Source: a virus. From it: 64,000 bases of DNA. Positions 2,892-52,419 of the stretch are shown here, one piece after another (the first letter of the stretch is position 1; each line of letters begins with the position of its first letter). A program made the position numbers and the translations under genes. The stretch spans positions 32,001 to 96,000 of IMG/VR virus record IMGVR_UViG_3300009528_000013. One strand, written 5' to 3'. The notes beneath the pieces are model-generated. The model was given only the letters and a program-made list of their open reading frames with translations. It did not search any database and was not told the DNA's origin.

Positions 2892-2956
2892 ATCTCGCTA
2901 ACAGAGCCGGTGGCGTGCGGCCCCGTTTTCATCGTTACCGAATCATCGGGCGAGAA
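2892..2956 (-). ncRNA. type I hammerhead ribozyme (variant core)
   Basis: Minus strand UCUCGC-CCGAUGA-U UCG GUAA CGA U-GAAA-ACGGGGCCG CACGCCAC CGGCUCUGU-UA/GCGAGA; all three stems form; predicted cleavage after UUA (2899/2898). Confidence 0.8.
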
Positions 2957-2957
2957 C

Positions 2958-3284
2958 TCAGACTACGTTCGGCCAACTCAGCAGTTGTTCCTCAGTCAGC
3001 TTCCCATAATACTCGGACTTCAGCAAGCGCCACTTCTTCTCTCCGTTCACCAGCCACTGAACCTCCAGGCGAAGCTTCTGCTTTCCAAACTTCATCCGAA
3101 GATTTCGCTTCCCAAGAGGCATCTCCTTCTTCAGATGACCCCAGCGATCTATTCGCCAGCCCTCAATAAGCGGATTTAGGAGCCACTCTTTAATCCGGTT
3201 CTTCTTGCGCTCGATCTTCAGGCTATGGTCCGTTCTCGGATGTCGGTTGACTTTCTCCATCCGGCGTATCATTTCCCTGTCCAT
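2958..3284 (-). CDS. hypothetical protein, paralog family B
   Basis: Ends SEYYGKLTEEQLLSWPNVV, identical to the end of 5289..5603. Confidence 0.7.
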   Translation of the reverse strand: MDREMIRRMEKVNRHPRTDHSLKIERKKNRIKEWLLNPLIEGWRIDRWGHLKKEMPLGKRNLRMKFGKQKLRLEVQWLVNGEKKWRLLKSEYYGKLTEEQLLSWPNVV

Positions 3285-3299
3285 CGGTCTGTTCACCTC

Positions 3300-3713
3300 C
3301 TATCTCGCCATACACTCCTTCACGTAGTCGTTGACCTCGATGATATCTACTTCTTCCCGACTGATCACGTACCCGATCCTCCCCTCCGCTTCCCGGCAAC
3401 ACTGCGACGCTGTGTGTGCCCGACCCCGAATCAAACTCCGCTTCGCCTCACAGATTCCCGCACAAGCAGAATCCAGAATGCGCTTGTTCTCTTTGCTGAG
3501 CATCGGTCTGTTCACCTCCTTCGCCGCCTTATAAGATTCTTTCCACAATTCGACTATCTCATACAACTCCCCATGCGTCAGACCAAACTGTTCACGGCAA
3601 GCAGAATACGCAAAAACCATATCGCTGCCCGCTGCCCGATCCAGAAAGTCCTGGGGTGTCTCACACTCTCTCGCCAGTCTCTGTAATCTCTGAAGCTCCG
3701 GTATCTGTTTCAT
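3300..3713 (-). CDS. hypothetical protein with an in-frame family A module (internal start at 3503)
   Basis: Internal GGAGGTGAACAGACCGATG precedes MLSKENKRILDSAC...CREAEGRIGY. Confidence 0.65.
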   Translation of the reverse strand: MKQIPELQRLQRLARECETPQDFLDRAAGSDMVFAYSACREQFGLTHGELYEIVELWKESYKAAKEVNRPMLSKENKRILDSACAGICEAKRSLIRGRAHTASQCCREAEGRIGYVISREEVDIIEVNDYVKECMAR

Positions 3714-3731
3714 CTTGCCACCCTTTCAAAA

Positions 3732-3944
3732 CTACGGCCCGCATCCCTCCGCCCTGTCTGCACACCCGTTGCACTGATACCCCTGTTTCACATCCTTGAG
3801 CGTCAGAACATCCTCGTCCCCGCACGTCGGACAAGGATAGATACGAGGATTATCTGAGGTCGCAGCACGCAGCGCAGACCGTCCGTCCGGGTCGGCGAAG
3901 TCAATCGCAAACTCGTCTTCGTCTCTTTCTTCGTCGTAATACAC
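3732..3944 (-). CDS. small Zn-finger protein
   Basis: CPTC...CNGC; RBS upstream. Confidence 0.6.
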   Translation of the reverse strand: MYYDEERDEDEFAIDFADPDGRSALRAATSDNPRIYPCPTCGDEDVLTLKDVKQGYQCNGCADRAEGCGP

Positions 3945-3984
3945 GGGCTTTCACCTCCTCTTTCTTTTTCTCTCGATTCCAGAT

Positions 3985-4515
3985 CTACTCATCGGATTCC
4001 GAATCATCACACTTCCAGAATCCGTAATCCGCCCCGTCTCCAGGACTCGCCCCGAAGTAATATCCCTCCGGAGCAATGGCGTCGAGCGCATCGAATAGAC
4101 CCCGAAGGACCCAACGCTTGCTCTCTTCGTTGCCTCCGGATTCCACTATTTCTACGAATTCTAACTCACGCCCTTCGGCCTCTTCAGGCTTTACTTCGGC
4201 AAGTGCCGCGATAAACTTCGGGATCAGATCGTCGGCGAGCATCGTTCCCTCGCTGACCGTTCCCCTAATGCTGGTCTCCGGCCTCTCGATCTCTTCGACC
4301 TCGTGCTTCTCTGCGAAGTCCAGTTCCCGAATGTTCACGGCGATCCTTTTGAGATCATTCATAGGTTTCTCCAGATCTGTCCGTACTTCTCTGAGACTCG
4401 GAAGCACTTGCTCAGCGACATCCAAGGAAACCGTCCTGCTCCGCATATCGAGTTCTTCGATCAGTTCTCCGATCCGCGACTTGGCGCTTCTCAGCGTCTG
4501 TATGGTGACGACCAT
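3985..4515 (-). CDS. hypothetical phage protein
   Basis: GGAGGTGA RBS; C-terminal GYYFGASPGDGADYGFW motif. Confidence 0.7.
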   Translation of the reverse strand: MVVTIQTLRSAKSRIGELIEELDMRSRTVSLDVAEQVLPSLREVRTDLEKPMNDLKRIAVNIRELDFAEKHEVEEIERPETSIRGTVSEGTMLADDLIPKFIAALAEVKPEEAEGRELEFVEIVESGGNEESKRWVLRGLFDALDAIAPEGYYFGASPGDGADYGFWKCDDSESDE

Positions 4516-4551
4516 AGGTATCACCTCCCTTCGATCTCGTTCTCTTCTTTC

Positions 4552-4616
4552 ATCTCACGACCCAGGCCAGTGGCGTATGACCCAGGTTTCATCCTGTCGG
4601 AATCGTCAGGTGAGAT
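4552..4616 (-). ncRNA. type I hammerhead ribozyme
   Basis: AUCUCAC-CUGACGA-U UCC GACA GGA U-GAAA-CCUGGGUCA UACGCCAC UGGCCUGGG-UC/GUGAGAU; canonical CUGANGA/GAAA core, 7-bp stem I, GUC site (4559/4558). Confidence 0.9.
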
Positions 4617-4907
4617 CTACTTAATGAACAACTGTTCTACTCCGTAGATTCCCCAGATCTCGTGCCGGTCGTCCTTAAAAGCCGTATGCCAGAGCAATCG
4701 GCCTCGGACTTTGATCAGCATCATAAACGATGTCCCGAGTCGAGCGGAACTGAAAACTGCGTCCACGTGAGTCCAACCGAGGATGTCGAAATCTCCGCTT
4801 TCGACATCTAATTGCTTGACATCGCTGACCGTAGCGATCTGAATCTGGCTGGCGATCTTCTTGTTCAGAGTCAAGACTTCGACCTTGATAATCTGTTCTC
4901 GCTTCAT
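4617..4907 (-). CDS. hypothetical protein
   Basis: Start motif GGAGGTGACAGACCGATG; stop abuts the ribozyme. Confidence 0.7.
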   Translation of the reverse strand: MKREQIIKVEVLTLNKKIASQIQIATVSDVKQLDVESGDFDILGWTHVDAVFSSARLGTSFMMLIKVRGRLLWHTAFKDDRHEIWGIYGVEQLFIK

Positions 4908-4949
4908 CGGTCTGTCACCTCCCCTCCTTCGGAATCTTCAGGCGAGACT

Positions 4950-5204
4950 TCAATACACCAGCGCTTCTGCAGCATACACCAAGTTCGCCAAGTCGAGCGC
5001 ATCCATCTGGAATTGATCAGCGACCCGGTTCATACGACGGATGAACCTTTCTGCCCGTTCCTGATTGATCGCATGGAACGAGACGAACGGAAGCTGGCCG
5101 CCGCCGAATCCTCTTTCTGGCCTACTCAGTCGGTGGTCGACCGACCTATCGGTTTTGTCGTGATCTCCGAGATGGCTCGTGAACGTCTTCAGTTCGATTG
5201 TCAT
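4950..5204 (-). CDS. hypothetical protein
   Basis: Start motif GGTGGTGAACAAACCGATG. Confidence 0.6.
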   Translation of the reverse strand: MTIELKTFTSHLGDHDKTDRSVDHRLSRPERGFGGGQLPFVSFHAINQERAERFIRRMNRVADQFQMDALDLANLVYAAEALVY

Positions 5205-5288
5205 CGGTTTGTTCACCACCTTTCTCTTGTTGTCCTATGCCTGTTTAACCTGTTTTCTCAGGAGACGGGCACGGGCCCGTCTGCACAC

Positions 5289-5603
5289 TCAGACAACGTT
5301 CGGCCAACTCAGAAGCTGCTCTTCGGTCAACTTCCCGTAGTACTCCGATCTGACCCGGTGCCATACTTTCTTGTCGGACTCCCACCACTGTTTCTCCAGA
5401 CGGACAACCTGCTTTCCAAACTTCAATCGGAATTTCCACCGTCCATCGTCGGTCGTCTTCTGAAGATGGCCGAAGCGATCTTCCGACCAGCCATTGGCAT
5501 TCAGTAGCCATTCCTTGACCAGCTTCTGTTTCCGCAACGCCAACTTTTTTCTGGGTGCCGTCGGTCGGTAAGGTTCCACTATGCGTATCAGGCCTCTGTC
5601 CAT
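5289..5603 (-). CDS. hypothetical protein, paralog family B
   Basis: Shared KEWLLN...GW...D.(F/W)GHL.K...KFGKQ..RLE and identical C-terminus with 2958..3284. Confidence 0.7.
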   Translation of the reverse strand: MDRGLIRIVEPYRPTAPRKKLALRKQKLVKEWLLNANGWSEDRFGHLQKTTDDGRWKFRLKFGKQVVRLEKQWWESDKKVWHRVRSEYYGKLTEEQLLSWPNVV

Positions 5604-5638
5604 CGGTTCGCCTCCTCTCCGTTGACCGCCCTGAACGC

Positions 5639-5839
5639 TCACTCGACATTCAACTCTAACAAACCATCGACCTCTACCTTCAACTTAAACCGGAACCCGA
5701 GTTCGCCATCCTTGCGATCTATCGTGATCTTCTCAACTGCTCTATCAAGATCACCGAACTCTTCTTCGACCGCCTCGATTGCTTTGGATAACTCCTCGGT
5801 CAGACGATGTGCGAAAAAAATGCTCTTCTCTTTTGTCAC
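5639..5839 (-). CDS. small hypothetical protein
   Basis: ORF with GGAGGTGA RBS. Confidence 0.55.
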   Translation of the reverse strand: MTKEKSIFFAHRLTEELSKAIEAVEEEFGDLDRAVEKITIDRKDGELGFRFKLKVEVDGLLELNVE

Positions 5840-5845
5840 CCGCCT

Positions 5846-6127
5846 TCACCTCCCTTCTGCCGATCGCCTCATTCGGTCAATCATCTCGACGTTTTTGTCC
5901 CGGAGATATTCGGAGATTTTTCTCCGAGCAACGTCAAGCTCATCCTGAGCATCTCGCAACGAAGCCAGCGCCTTGTATGAGAAGTCTCCCCTAAACCACT
6001 GTCGAGCATCGAGGACGTGACCGATCGCCTCCCGCATACTCCTGTCAACGGGCGTACCCCCCTCCACAGATTTCGCCATAGACTTTGCCATAGACTTTGC
6101 CATAGACTTTGCCATAGACTTTGCCAT
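5846..6127 (-). CDS. hypothetical protein with repeated N-terminal MAKS
   Basis: GGAGGTGA RBS at 6133-6140; tandem 12-bp repeat at the 5' end. Confidence 0.6.
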   Translation of the reverse strand: MAKSMAKSMAKSMAKSMAKSVEGGTPVDRSMREAIGHVLDARQWFRGDFSYKALASLRDAQDELDVARRKISEYLRDKNVEMIDRMRRSAEGR

Positions 6128-6133
6128 AGACTT
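6075..6133. repeat. 12-bp tandem repeat GCCATAGACTTT x~5
   Basis: Read directly from the sequence. Confidence 0.95.
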
Positions 6134-6366
6134 CACCTCCCTTCGGTCTGTTGTAACTTACAACGTTTTTCATGGGAGTCATGAACAGACCTAAACCCCT
6201 ATGAAAATACTGTGATGTGGATCCGATTTTGAAAACGTAACTTCCGAAAGATCACACCAGAAAGACAAACGCCGAAAGTCTGACCTGTTTCCACTAACCC
6301 CTTGACCCAGAATGTCCTGAACGATTTTCAAGCCCCTCCGAAGAGAAGAAAGAAAGACCGAAAATC

Positions 6367-6866
6367 CGGATCCTTATCGCATTGATTCTATTGAAGTTAA
6401 GTGCGTTTATGACTCCCACTTTTCTGCCCTTTCAATACTTAGGTTCCAAGAACCCGGACCCTTATCACATTGTTTTTTAAGGCGCTTAGGTGCAGTTATG
6501 ACTCCCACCAAAACTGTCGTAAGTCGAAAAAGGGCGGTTTTTTCGACCCCTCATCGCATTGTTTTTTAAGGAGCTTAGGTGCAGTTATGACTCCCATTTA
6601 TTTACACACACAGCACCCCCCTCTCTCTAAGTTTTTACTTTTCCCCCCTCTGTCAAAAAAACAAGTACTTGGTTCCTTGTTACCCCCTTCTCAGACCCCA
6701 GACCCATAGAATAGTACTAGCTCAGAAATAGTCTATCCGTAGATAATATCTTTCTATATCAGTACGCTTAGTGTACTATATGTTATGTGTGTTCCTATAT
6801 GTGTGTGTATGTTTATGACTCCCATAAATACACTTAACTCCTTTATTTACAATGCGATAAGGGTTC
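6367..6866. repeat. iteron-like ~48-bp repeats (3 direct, 1 inverted)
   Basis: CCTTATCGCATTG...TTA(A/G)GTGC..TTATGACTCCCA at 6372, 6460 and 6549 (88-89 bp period); inverted copy ends at 6863; noncoding region. Confidence 0.85.
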
Positions 6867-7144
6867 GGCTTTTCCTGGGGGATTGTGCCTAACTTGTTGT
6901 TTTCCTTGACATTACGGAAGAAAGTCGGCAACCGAATCGGAGAGAATCGGAGAGCACCACTCGGTCGATTACCAGATTCTGGTCTCTCAAACCCCCTGGG
7001 ATTCTCTTGAACAGCGTCCTCCGATCTGAGAAGACGGTTCTCTCCCCTATGTTTTCTTTTCTAAGCCCTTTTCTTGTGTTTGAAAGCCCCCCCCAAAGGG
7101 AAAAAGGGTCCCCAATCTGTTAGAAATCTATTGGTTCTCTTGCA

Positions 7145-7208
7145 TCTCACGACCCTGGCCAGTGGAGTTTGGCCGTGGGTTTCGTCCTATTGGACTCATC
7201 GGGCGAGA
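7145..7208 (-). ncRNA. type I hammerhead ribozyme
   Basis: UCUCGC-CCGAUGA-GUCC AAUA GGAC-GAAA-CCC AC GGCCA AACUCCAC UGGCC A GGG-UC/GUGAGA; canonical stem II; GUC site (7151/7150). Confidence 0.88.
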
Positions 7209-7364
7209 CTACGGCAAGCTTGCTCGGATATGAAGTCTCGATTCAGCTTCTTCGGTTGCCCGTCTCAGTCTGTCTAAGCCAACCTCCCTTCGCCGATCAT
7301 CGGTAAGCTTTTGCCTCATCCTGTAGACGCCGTGCAGGCGCCGGTCGAGTTCCGAAGAGCTCAT
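7209..7364 (-). CDS. small hypothetical protein (51 aa, not in ORF track)
   Basis: MSSSELDRRLHGVYRMRQK...EEAESRLHIRASLP*; GGAG RBS; TAG directly precedes the ribozyme. Confidence 0.55.
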   Translation of the reverse strand: MSSSELDRRLHGVYRMRQKLTDDRRREVGLDRLRRATEEAESRLHIRASLP

Positions 7365-7490
7365 CTCGATCATCTCCTTATGGCAATCTGGGTTGAATTT
7401 TCAGCGCCGCTCGGATCCTGAGTACCCGGCGTACACGCTTCAGACGCTTTCGCTGTGCAATCTTTTCTTTCACGGACATCGCCTCTCCTT

Positions 7491-7685
7491 TCACAGAACG
7501 TTCAGATGCGCAACGAAGCAACTGAACCCACCCCGTACTTCCTGAAGCTTCAACTGGAGCTCGTCCAGATACGCCGTCTCCCTCTTCTCGACAATCTTCT
7601 CCTGTTGTTCGTCGATCTCTGCGACCGACTTTGTAATCGCGGCTACGTCGTGGTACATCAGTTCGACCGATTGTTCTATTGTCAT
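7491..7685 (-). CDS. small hypothetical protein
   Basis: ORF with GGGGGGTGA RBS. Confidence 0.55.
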   Translation of the reverse strand: MTIEQSVELMYHDVAAITKSVAEIDEQQEKIVEKRETAYLDELQLKLQEVRGGFSCFVAHLNVL

Positions 7686-7765
7686 CTAATCACCCCCCGC
7701 TCCTTCTGTCTCCTTTTATTCTTCGACGGTTCTGACTATTGCCTGGTATTCCCTCCTACCTCGGA

Positions 7766-7951
7766 CTATGATTTCTGTCCGATGGCTTTTGCCTGTTTGC
7801 GTGTGGCGTAGATCCCCTCCTCTTTTCCGTTGACATATAATCGGATTCGAGAATTGAGGGACTTCCCCAGGGATACTATTTTGTACTTGTTTCCCTGGGA
7901 GTTTATCCATGCCCCTATGAAAAGTTCACGATTCTCAGTCTGCTTTGCCAT
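7766..7951 (-). CDS. small hypothetical protein
   Basis: ORF with GGAG RBS. Confidence 0.5.
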   Translation of the reverse strand: MAKQTENRELFIGAWINSQGNKYKIVSLGKSLNSRIRLYVNGKEEGIYATRKQAKAIGQKS

Positions 7952-7975
7952 CGTTCTCCATTCTCCATTCTCCTT

Positions 7976-8437
7976 TCACTCTTCGACGGTCCCGGTCACT
8001 GTCCCCTTTGCACCGCACTTCGGGCAGGGGTCGAGCTCGAACGATTTGTAGATCCATCCGCACTCCAGGCACTCGATCATCATCCTCGCCTTCAGACCGC
8101 CACGGGACCGGCAGTATCGGGTTGCACCGAGACGTTCTCTTTCTTCCTGGAACGTATATCCGTGTCCGGTGTGGGGATTTGCGATATGGATGATCTCGTG
8201 TTTCAGGACTTCTCCGAGCTCGTGATTCCAACCGAACTCGTCGAAGTAATGTCCTGAGATGGTCAGCAAGAAGCGGTCGTCTTTCCGAAACCATCGAACT
8301 TTCGCCGCCACTCTTCTCAGTCGCTCCGAGATCTGAATCTCTACATTTCCCACTTTCAGGTAGGGGTAGCACTCATCCCGAACATCTGAAAGCATCTCCC
8401 AGATCTCATCGGGCGTCGGTCGTTTTCTGAACGGCAT
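7976..8437 (-). CDS. SprT-like Zn metalloprotease domain protein
   Basis: VLKHEIIH (HExxH), downstream GHGYTF, C-terminal CLEC...CPKC ribbon. Confidence 0.8.
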   Translation of the reverse strand: MPFRKRPTPDEIWEMLSDVRDECYPYLKVGNVEIQISERLRRVAAKVRWFRKDDRFLLTISGHYFDEFGWNHELGEVLKHEIIHIANPHTGHGYTFQEERERLGATRYCRSRGGLKARMMIECLECGWIYKSFELDPCPKCGAKGTVTGTVEE

Positions 8438-8477
8438 TGGTCTATTCACCACCTTTCATTTGCTATTGTGATCTGTT

Positions 8478-8542
8478 ATCTCGCTAACGGAGTCGGTGGA
8501 GTACGACCCCATTTTCATCCTTTTGGAATCATCGGGCGAGAA
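8478..8542 (-). ncRNA. type I hammerhead ribozyme (variant core)
   Basis: UCUCGC-CCGAUGA-U UCC AAAA GGA U-GAAA-AUGGGGUCG UACUCCAC CGACUCCGU-UA/GCGAGA; compensatory changes versus the 2892 copy. Confidence 0.8.
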
Positions 8543-8729
8543 TGATCTGTCGGTGTGCTTCGATCAGTTCGAGTCCGGCGACCGCTTCCTTCGCTACTAT
8601 CATTGCCGATCGGTACACATCTTTCTCCGGATCAGCAATGCCCTCTTTGGCATAATTGGCCCCCTCCTGAAGACGCTCGATTGCTTCGATCAGAAGAAGT
8701 TTATCCGATTTTTCCATTTCGCTCACCAC
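8529..8729 (-). CDS. small hypothetical protein
   Basis: ORF track; its TGA stop lies inside the ribozyme core. Confidence 0.55.
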   Translation of the reverse strand: MVSEMEKSDKLLLIEAIERLQEGANYAKEGIADPEKDVYRSAMIVAKEAVAGLELIEAHRQIILAR

Positions 8730-52309: not shown

Positions 52310-52419
52310 GTTTAAGAGCGCTATCCATCAAAATAAGGATTGAAATAAGAGTTCGTATCCCGCTGTCGATTACATCGCAGTAGTTTAAGAACGCTATCCA
52401 TTAAAACAAGGATTGAAAC
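52310..52419 (+). CRISPR. mini-CRISPR array (37-bp repeat, 36-bp spacer, 37-bp repeat), no cas genes
   Basis: GTTTAAGAGCGCTATCCATCAAAATAAGGATTGAAAT / AAGAGTTCGTATCCCGCTGTCGATTACATCGCAGTA / GTTTAAGAACGCTATCCATTAAAACAAGGATTGAAAC; ends in the ATTGAAAC handle of Cas6-processed repeats. Confidence 0.9.

Follow-up and report, generated by a model that had tools for sequence, protein, structure and literature searches.

A 64,000-nucleotide (nt) window of viral DNA, comprising bases 32001-96000 of the 117,770-base-pair (bp) IMG/VR virus record IMGVR_UViG_3300009528_000013 (CheckV completeness estimate, 87%), carries four RNA elements on its minus strand that have the fold of the hammerhead ribozyme. 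We call them c1 (2893-2955), c2 (4553-4615), c3 (7145-7208), and c4 (8479-8541). These are genuine RNAs with the hammerhead fold and type I topology, maintained by selection, and they probably self-cleave. We consider it likely that these ribozymes cut a leftward phage messenger RNA (mRNA) into RNAs the size of gene blocks. The locus adds a well-supported hammerhead array in a phage without close relatives.

Structure and Covariation of the Four Elements

The four elements are repeats of 63-64 nt with pairwise identities of 77-82%. All share one layout, in which three helices meet at a junction and stem I holds the open ends; it consists of stem I (UCUCRC/GYGAGA), the core C(C/U)GA(U/C)GA, stem II, GAA, stem III, U16.1, and H17. 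Across the copies, stem I spans 6-7 bp, stem II 3-4 bp, and stem III 9-10 bp, with a 4-nt loop on stem II and an 8-nt loop on stem III. A sequence-only reading of this DNA had placed four minus-strand type I hammerheads at these sites, and a sequence pattern, an independent descriptor, and RNAalifold all confirm them.

The copies differ in their details. Copy c4 has the core CCGAUGA, U.U at positions 10.1/11.1, loop II AAAA, and a 10-bp stem III closed by the loop UACUCCAC; it scores 90.2 bits with covariance model R1, and its minimum-energy fold is the hammerhead fold (z score of -2.8). The minimum-energy fold of c3 is likewise the hammerhead fold (z score of -2.9; 83.9 bits with R1). This copy combines the core CCGAUGA with a canonical stem II (GUCC/GGAC, loop AAUA), and its stem III contains an A.A mismatch and a bulged C beneath the loop AACUCCAC. 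Copy c2 (85 bits with R1) is the only one with the canonical core, CUGACGA; it has U.U at 10.1/11.1, loop II GACA, and the stem III loop UACGCCAC. Its minimum-energy structure forms stem III and not the full fold (z score of -1.9), and the three-way junction appears in the centroid only, with stem II there replaced by base pairing between the core and stem II. Finally, c1 (88.8 bits with R1) has the core CCGAUGA, stem II UUCG/CGAU with U.U, loop II GUAA, and the stem III loop CACGCCAC. The derived cut falls after A17 in c4 (between 8485 and 8484) and c1 (between 2899 and 2898), and after C17 in c3 (between 7151 and 7150) and c2 (between 4559 and 4558). These positions are identical to those predicted in the sequence-only reading.

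RNAalifold, unaided, predicts a three-way junction with stems I, II, and III from the four copies. Mapped onto the hammerhead structure, the alignment has pairs in 95% of its pair cells; sliding the 3' partners by 1-3 columns lowers this to 34-49%. Six pairs in the four-copy alignment show compensatory changes on both sides, including a change from C-G to U-A in stem III, in agreement with the stem covariation that had been noted between copies. The substitutions are concentrated in the stems and are compensatory, which argues for selection on the RNA fold. Copies c1 and c4, both with C at position 4 (C4), also differ by compensatory stem III changes such as C-G to U-A, indicating that the fold was maintained under selection after C4 arose.

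Detection in the Viral Record

Because the hammerhead consensus is short and gives chance matches in large databases (PMC3088659), we weighed whether the four elements could resemble it by chance, an explanation that we regard as almost inconceivable. A 29-nt degenerate pattern made from the copies matches four minus-strand sites only (2927-2955, 4587-4615, 7180-7208, and 8513-8541) and has no match in 100 shuffles. We also used a generic type I hammerhead descriptor that was built independently of these sequences and accepts any base at position 4 and one mismatch at 10.1/11.1. Applied to the entire 117,770-bp record, both strands included, it matches c1-c4 only, and 20 shuffled genomes gave a single match in total (~0.05 per genome). 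Four full matches in 118 kilobases (kb) against ~0.05 per shuffled genome, in copies that are homologous and covary, refute chance resemblance.

Core Nucleotides and Probable Capacity for Cleavage

No copy departs from C3, G5, A6, G8, A9, G12, A13, A14, A15.1, or U16.1, and with these the full set of nucleotides known to be essential for catalysis is intact. Variation in the core is confined to N7 (U/C), H17 (A/C, never G), and position 4 (C/U); at N7 and H17 a functional hammerhead tolerates such change. The A15.1-U16.1 pair is present in every copy, and position 17 is non-G throughout, the base there being A in c1 and c4 but C in the other two.

Several observations weigh against the view that these elements cut phage mRNA. 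Position 4 is C in c1, c3, and c4, leaving U4 in c2 only; positions 10.1/11.1 are U.U in c1, c2, and c4, leaving G-C in c3 only; and c1 and c4 combine C4 with U.U. Among IMG/VR hammerheads with the common GUCC/GGAC stem II, the C4 core occurs in 4 contigs and U4 in at least 120, making C4 at least 30 times rarer in this same-stem comparison. A loop-loop or pseudoknot contact between stem I and loop II, of the kind that allows fast cleavage at cellular Mg2+, was not identified: stem I has no internal loop and no extension into the flanks, and the variable 4-nt loop II has no complementarity to the flanks. An A-minor type contact between the A-rich loop II and the unusually conserved stem I may form. 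With stem I an open helix of 6-7 bp and loop II only 4 nt long, the copies look like minimal hammerheads, whose cleavage at cellular Mg2+ is slow. In c1 the minimum-energy fold retains stems I and III but pairs the core CCGA with UCGG of stem II, a competing fold. Finally, all four copies fall below every Rfam hammerhead gathering score.

The Rfam hammerhead models, proposed in the sequence-only reading as a check, gave subthreshold matches only. At gathering thresholds the sequence yielded two CRISPR repeats only and no hammerhead. The best score against Hammerhead_HH9 (RF02275) was that of c3, 16.1 bits against a gathering score of 52. Copy c2 reached 12.4 bits with Hammerhead_1 (RF00163; gathering score, 34) and 12.5 bits with RAGATH-1-hammerhead (RF03152; gathering score, 56.3), and c4 had no Rfam hammerhead match in a permissive search. 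The canonical hammerhead of another viral contig, L011, likewise has no Rfam hammerhead match at E <= 0.1, so this score test is insensitive and weak. Standard Rfam annotation would miss all four copies.

Both core departures have precedents. Perreault et al. 2011 (PMC3088659) write of the U4C variant that it "considerably decreases activity in vitro", and they cite Ambros and Flores 1998 for U4C retaining enough in vivo activity for viroid infectivity. U10.1-U11.1 is a natural active variant, and U.U supports more activity than any other mismatch (PMC3088659). In the present locus, C4 and the 10.1/11.1 U.U have been kept through many compensatory stem changes, which argues that these "defective" cores are functional in vivo. 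Since the cores are weakened and no contact of stem I with loop II is visible, cleavage may be slow or conditional.

A reading in which the elements are catalytically crippled derivatives, with negligible self-cleavage and a fold retained for another role, would account for some of these features. Such structures could serve as a 3' exonuclease barrier, as a cistron insulator, or as a protein site that reads the loop III sequence NACKCCAC. C4 in three of the four copies, U.U in three of the four, and no identified tertiary contact are all consistent with this explanation. Loop III keeps 6 of its 8 positions above a covarying 10-bp stem, a feature that catalysis does not need, and the phage hammerheads that we used for comparison have short stems III with variable loops; none has the long stem III or its loop. 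However, a mere hairpin or protein site would need no invariant catalytic nucleotides, and here these are held while N7 and H17 drift. Moreover, U4C and U.U are both documented as compatible with activity (PMC3088659). We therefore judge crippled elements to be unlikely, and we retain the view that the copies are probably active.

No partner for loop III was detected: there is no GUGGMGU on the minus-strand RNA of the block and no complement in the flanks. The GGUG of the ribosome-binding site (RBS) was considered as a partner and rejected, since it would form 4-5 bp only and is absent after c3. The conserved loop III offers a concrete handle on whether cleavage is regulated.

Placement at Stop Codons

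Each copy lies at the stop codon of the open reading frame (ORF) upstream, as the sequence-only reading had described. The distances are 0 nt for c3, 1 nt for c2, and 2 nt for c1, and in c4 the stop lies inside the element (all ORFs discussed here are on the minus strand). The 54-amino-acid (aa) ORF at 7209-7373 ends in a TAG (7211-7209) that abuts stem I of c3. The stop of the 96-aa ORF at 4617-4907 (TAG, 4619-4617) lies 1 nt before stem I of c2, and that of the 112-aa ORF at 2958-3296 (TGA, 2960-2958) lies 2 nt before stem I of c1. Upstream of c4 is a 62-aa ORF (8529-8716) with the RBS AAAGGUGGUGA 6 nt before its AUG. Its stop, UGA at 8531-8529, is U7-G8-A9 of the ribozyme core, and its final four codons plus stop (AUU CUC GCC CGA UGA) form stem I and the core of c4. 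With type I topology and a cut ~55 nt downstream of each stop, cleavage would never yield a message without a stop codon.

Downstream, three copies (c1, c2, and c4) are followed by purine-rich leaders of 37-42 nt and an RBS, which bears out a further point of that reading. After c4, a 41-nt leader (8478-8438) with the RBS GGUGGUGA precedes a 153-aa gene whose start codon is at 8437 (leader and gene, 7976-8478). The 37-nt purine-rich leader after c2 (4552-4516) carries the RBS GGGAGGUGA of a 176-aa gene with its start at 4515 (3985-4552), and the 42-nt purine-rich leader after c1 (2892-2851) carries the RBS GGAGGUGA of a 138-aa gene with its start at 2850 (2434-2892). The three start codons are thus 38-43 nt past the ends of c1, c2, and c4. 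The four copies bound blocks of 1-4 small ORFs. A scan for intrinsic terminators gave none at the four elements.

Several genes of the block have in common a long box that runs from the RBS to the start codon, GGAGGUGA(C/U)A(G)ACC(N)AUG (2851-2870, 4516-4533, 8438-8456, and 4908-4925, minus strand). We also considered a mini-ORF whose AUG directly follows stem I. In c1 and c2 the UGA of GGAGGUGA closes it, which is not the case in c3, c4, or L011, and we judged it not significant.

Copy c3 stands at the 3' end of a gene block. It is followed by ~1 kb without a convincing ORF (6137-7144, minus strand), which separates it from the next block. This region holds three tandem 89-bp units (6372-6599) together with inverted copies (6156-6225 and 6813-6874), and these units and inverted copies have the boxes TGGGAGTCATAA and CAATGCGATAAGG in common. 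A promoter array is one possibility for this region, and an iteron-bearing origin is another. Because ~1 kb of repeat-rich noncoding DNA follows c3, the four copies probably lie in two transcription units split by 6137-7144, and c3 would trim a 3' end; c3 is at the end of a unit, not between genes. The earlier idea that the hammerheads punctuate one operon is upheld as to the coding strand and the gene boundaries and probably needs revision as to the single operon.

The repeats might instead be selfish or recently duplicated intergenic sequences without present function, each a cassette boundary copied along with gene cassettes. Copies that are 77-82% identical and are followed by similar leaders and RBS boxes would fit such an origin, as would a degenerate hammerhead relic (4895-4949, minus strand; 22.3 bits with R1, E about 1e-3), which shows that copies can be lost. 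The relic starts 2 nt after the stop of the ORF at 4950-5219. The 5' strand of stem I, CUGAAGA, and UUCC (the start of stem II) survive in it, whereas GAAA and stem III are missing, and its fold is no better than that of shuffles (z score of -0.48). The RBS box GGAGGUGACAGACCGAUG of the gene at 4617-4907, to which the relic is fused, also follows c1. On the other side, the four copies all lie on one strand and exactly at gene ends, and on the 5' side the sequence similarity among them ends at the ribozyme borders. No terminal inverted repeats or target duplications were seen in the flanks read, and the stem substitutions are compensatory. A selfish or functionless repeat thus appears very improbable.

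Proposed Processing of the Leftward mRNA

On the reading that we favor, self-cleavage of the leftward mRNA, each ribozyme in the transcript of the small-gene block would cut after H17, co- or post-transcriptionally, ~55 nt past the preceding stop. The upstream message would keep its stop codon, and its end would be a compact structure of stems II and III bearing a 2',3'-cyclic phosphate. A 5'-OH would head the downstream message, followed by the 6-nt 3' strand of stem I, an unstructured purine-rich leader of 37-42 nt, and a strong RBS. Copy c3 would shorten its transcription unit at the 3' end. Overall, long transcripts would be divided without the help of proteins into pieces that could differ in stability and translation. 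The processing of polycistronic mRNA that the sequence-only reading proposed is accordingly plausible and has a precedent in PMC3088659, but the idea is already published, and three of the copies carry C4.

C4 and U.U would probably slow the rate of cleavage. Translation may also come into play: a ribosome that terminates in the core or 0-2 nt ahead of stem I would occlude the 5' strand of this stem, so that upstream translation and ribozyme folding should compete. The resistance of 5'-OH ends to decay that the sequence-only reading suggested would hold in some hosts only. The direction of any effect on stability would depend on the host, because RNase J1 of Bacillus subtilis degrades the 5'-OH product of the glmS ribozyme.

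We also considered, as a joint alternative, that loop III is a docking site that switches the C4/U.U cores, or that ribozymes pair with one another and ligate. In the first case, a phage or host factor would dock on NACKCCAC of loop III and turn the weakened cores on or off, giving regulated processing. In the second, the 5' end released by one ribozyme would pair with the stem I 5' strand of the next, and the ends of an excised 1.3-1.7 kb segment would meet to give a circular or spliced RNA. The copies have an almost unchanging stem I (UCUCRC/GYGAGA), which could be exchanged from one to another. Perreault et al. (PMC3088659) raised the ligation idea, sought such products, and detected none. 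We regard this alternative, in either form, as quite improbable.

Hammerheads in Other Viral Contigs

Covariance model R1 recovers canonical type I hammerheads in other viral contigs, including L011, L026, and L029, and most of these relatives begin 1-4 nt after a stop codon. Stem I of the L011 element is nearly that of c1-c4, and its UG tail is the same. L026 has three copies on one strand within 700 nt (L026:320-1019, minus strand), and L029 also has three on one strand (L029:4150-6637, minus strand), one of them with U.U. In an alignment of 13 sequences, 94% of cells pair and 16 of the 20 pairs change on both sides, figures that are biased towards the structure because the alignment was fitted to model R1.

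In L026 and L029 the 3' strand of stem I reads GGGAGG or GGAGA and lies 7-9 nt before an AUG. This strand thus doubles as the Shine-Dalgarno sequence of the next gene, and stem I would be expected to mask that sequence until the RNA is cut.

C4 hammerheads also occur in unrelated viral contigs (L277:237-293, L274:3869-3921, and L276:8888-8949, all minus strand). At least two of the C4 cases, L277 and L274/L275, are well-formed type I hammerheads with a stop codon on one side and an RBS on the other. The C4 copy of L276 has a canonical U4 copy 1.7 kb away with the same stem I 5' strand, CCCAUG.

Pattern searches for the long stem III were less productive. A loose loop III pattern (GAAA..ACNCCAC..GNGAGA) gave no real relative among the matches listed for IMG/VR and a metagenome collection, and a strict 19-base pattern of the long stem III had no match in IMG/VR. 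In a collection with one genome per species the strict pattern gave three matches, which we rejected; R1 scored one of them at 12.5 bits (E 0.15) and the other two not at all. The matches in L010, L013, L014, L015, and L016 are chance matches that lie in coding sequence and have no proper core or GAAA.

Genome Setting

The elements lie to the left of a change in genome organization. From ~10.4 kb rightwards the genes are on the plus strand and include those for a portal protein, a tape-measure-like protein, a DNA ligase, and a methyltransferase; leftwards of 10.3 kb the guanine-cytosine skew flips and the minus strand carries small ORFs. To judge from its block of small genes, this leftward region may be an early operon. 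In PHROGs, nearly all of the small minus-strand genes of the block have no family match, and none of 20 neighboring ORFs could be named. The portal protein is only 22-29% identical to the portals of Thermus phage phiYS40/TMA and of some Arthrobacter phages, which points to a phage without close described relatives. A search for related phages by way of the genes adjoining c2 and c4 found none, and no transfer RNAs are present.

Two CRISPR-DR7 repeats (RF01320; 37.8 and 50.5 bits) flank one 36-nt spacer at 52310-52419, between phage ORFs. They make up a phage-borne mini-array or a repeat decoy and may point to the host.

Comparison with Known Systems

The Rfam models RF00163, RF02275, and RF03152 have the same core order and type I topology as the elements described here, and c2 and c3 align with them over the core, stem II, and GAAAC. 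The viroid U4C variant has the same core substitution as c1, c3, and c4. The viroid RNA has its own peripheral contacts, and c1 and c4 differ from it in lying in a phage mRNA and in combining C4 with U.U at 10.1/11.1.

The HHphage element of haloviruses HF1/HF2 is likewise a hammerhead with a variant core; it immediately precedes a gene on an early polycistronic transcript, and a 5' end has been mapped no more than 3 nt from its cut site (Perreault et al. 2011, PMC3088659). It differs in having insertions 2a/2b in the core, in being a single copy, and in its halophilic archaeal host. The glmS ribozyme offers a parallel of another ribozyme class: self-cleavage leaves a 5'-OH on the downstream mRNA and decides its fate. 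In Bacillus subtilis RNase J1 accepts this product as a substrate, and its degradation is rapid (Collins et al. 2007, via PMC3328962). There the 5'-OH triggers decay and cleavage is under metabolite control, in both of which glmS differs from the present elements as we picture them.

The closest likeness is to the clustered prophage hammerheads of Clostridium scindens, Azorhizobium caulinodans, and Agrobacterium tumefaciens, which flank single genes or short gene blocks, were shown in vitro to cut themselves within the native polycistronic RNAs of three prophages, and were proposed to convert long phage RNAs into operon- or gene-length mRNAs (Perreault et al. 2011, PMC3088659). A 2019 review considered the purpose of hammerhead arrays in phage operons still unsettled and unproven (PMC6765202). 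Like the prophage arrays, c1-c4 are several one-strand hammerheads between the genes of a phage transcript, and the role that we propose for them is the same. Unlike those arrays, they have C4 in three of the four copies, a 10-bp stem III with a conserved 8-nt loop, and no evident loop-loop or pseudoknot tertiary contact. The arrangement has been known in phages since 2011 (PMC3088659), and the present locus is a new example of it with unusual sequence details.

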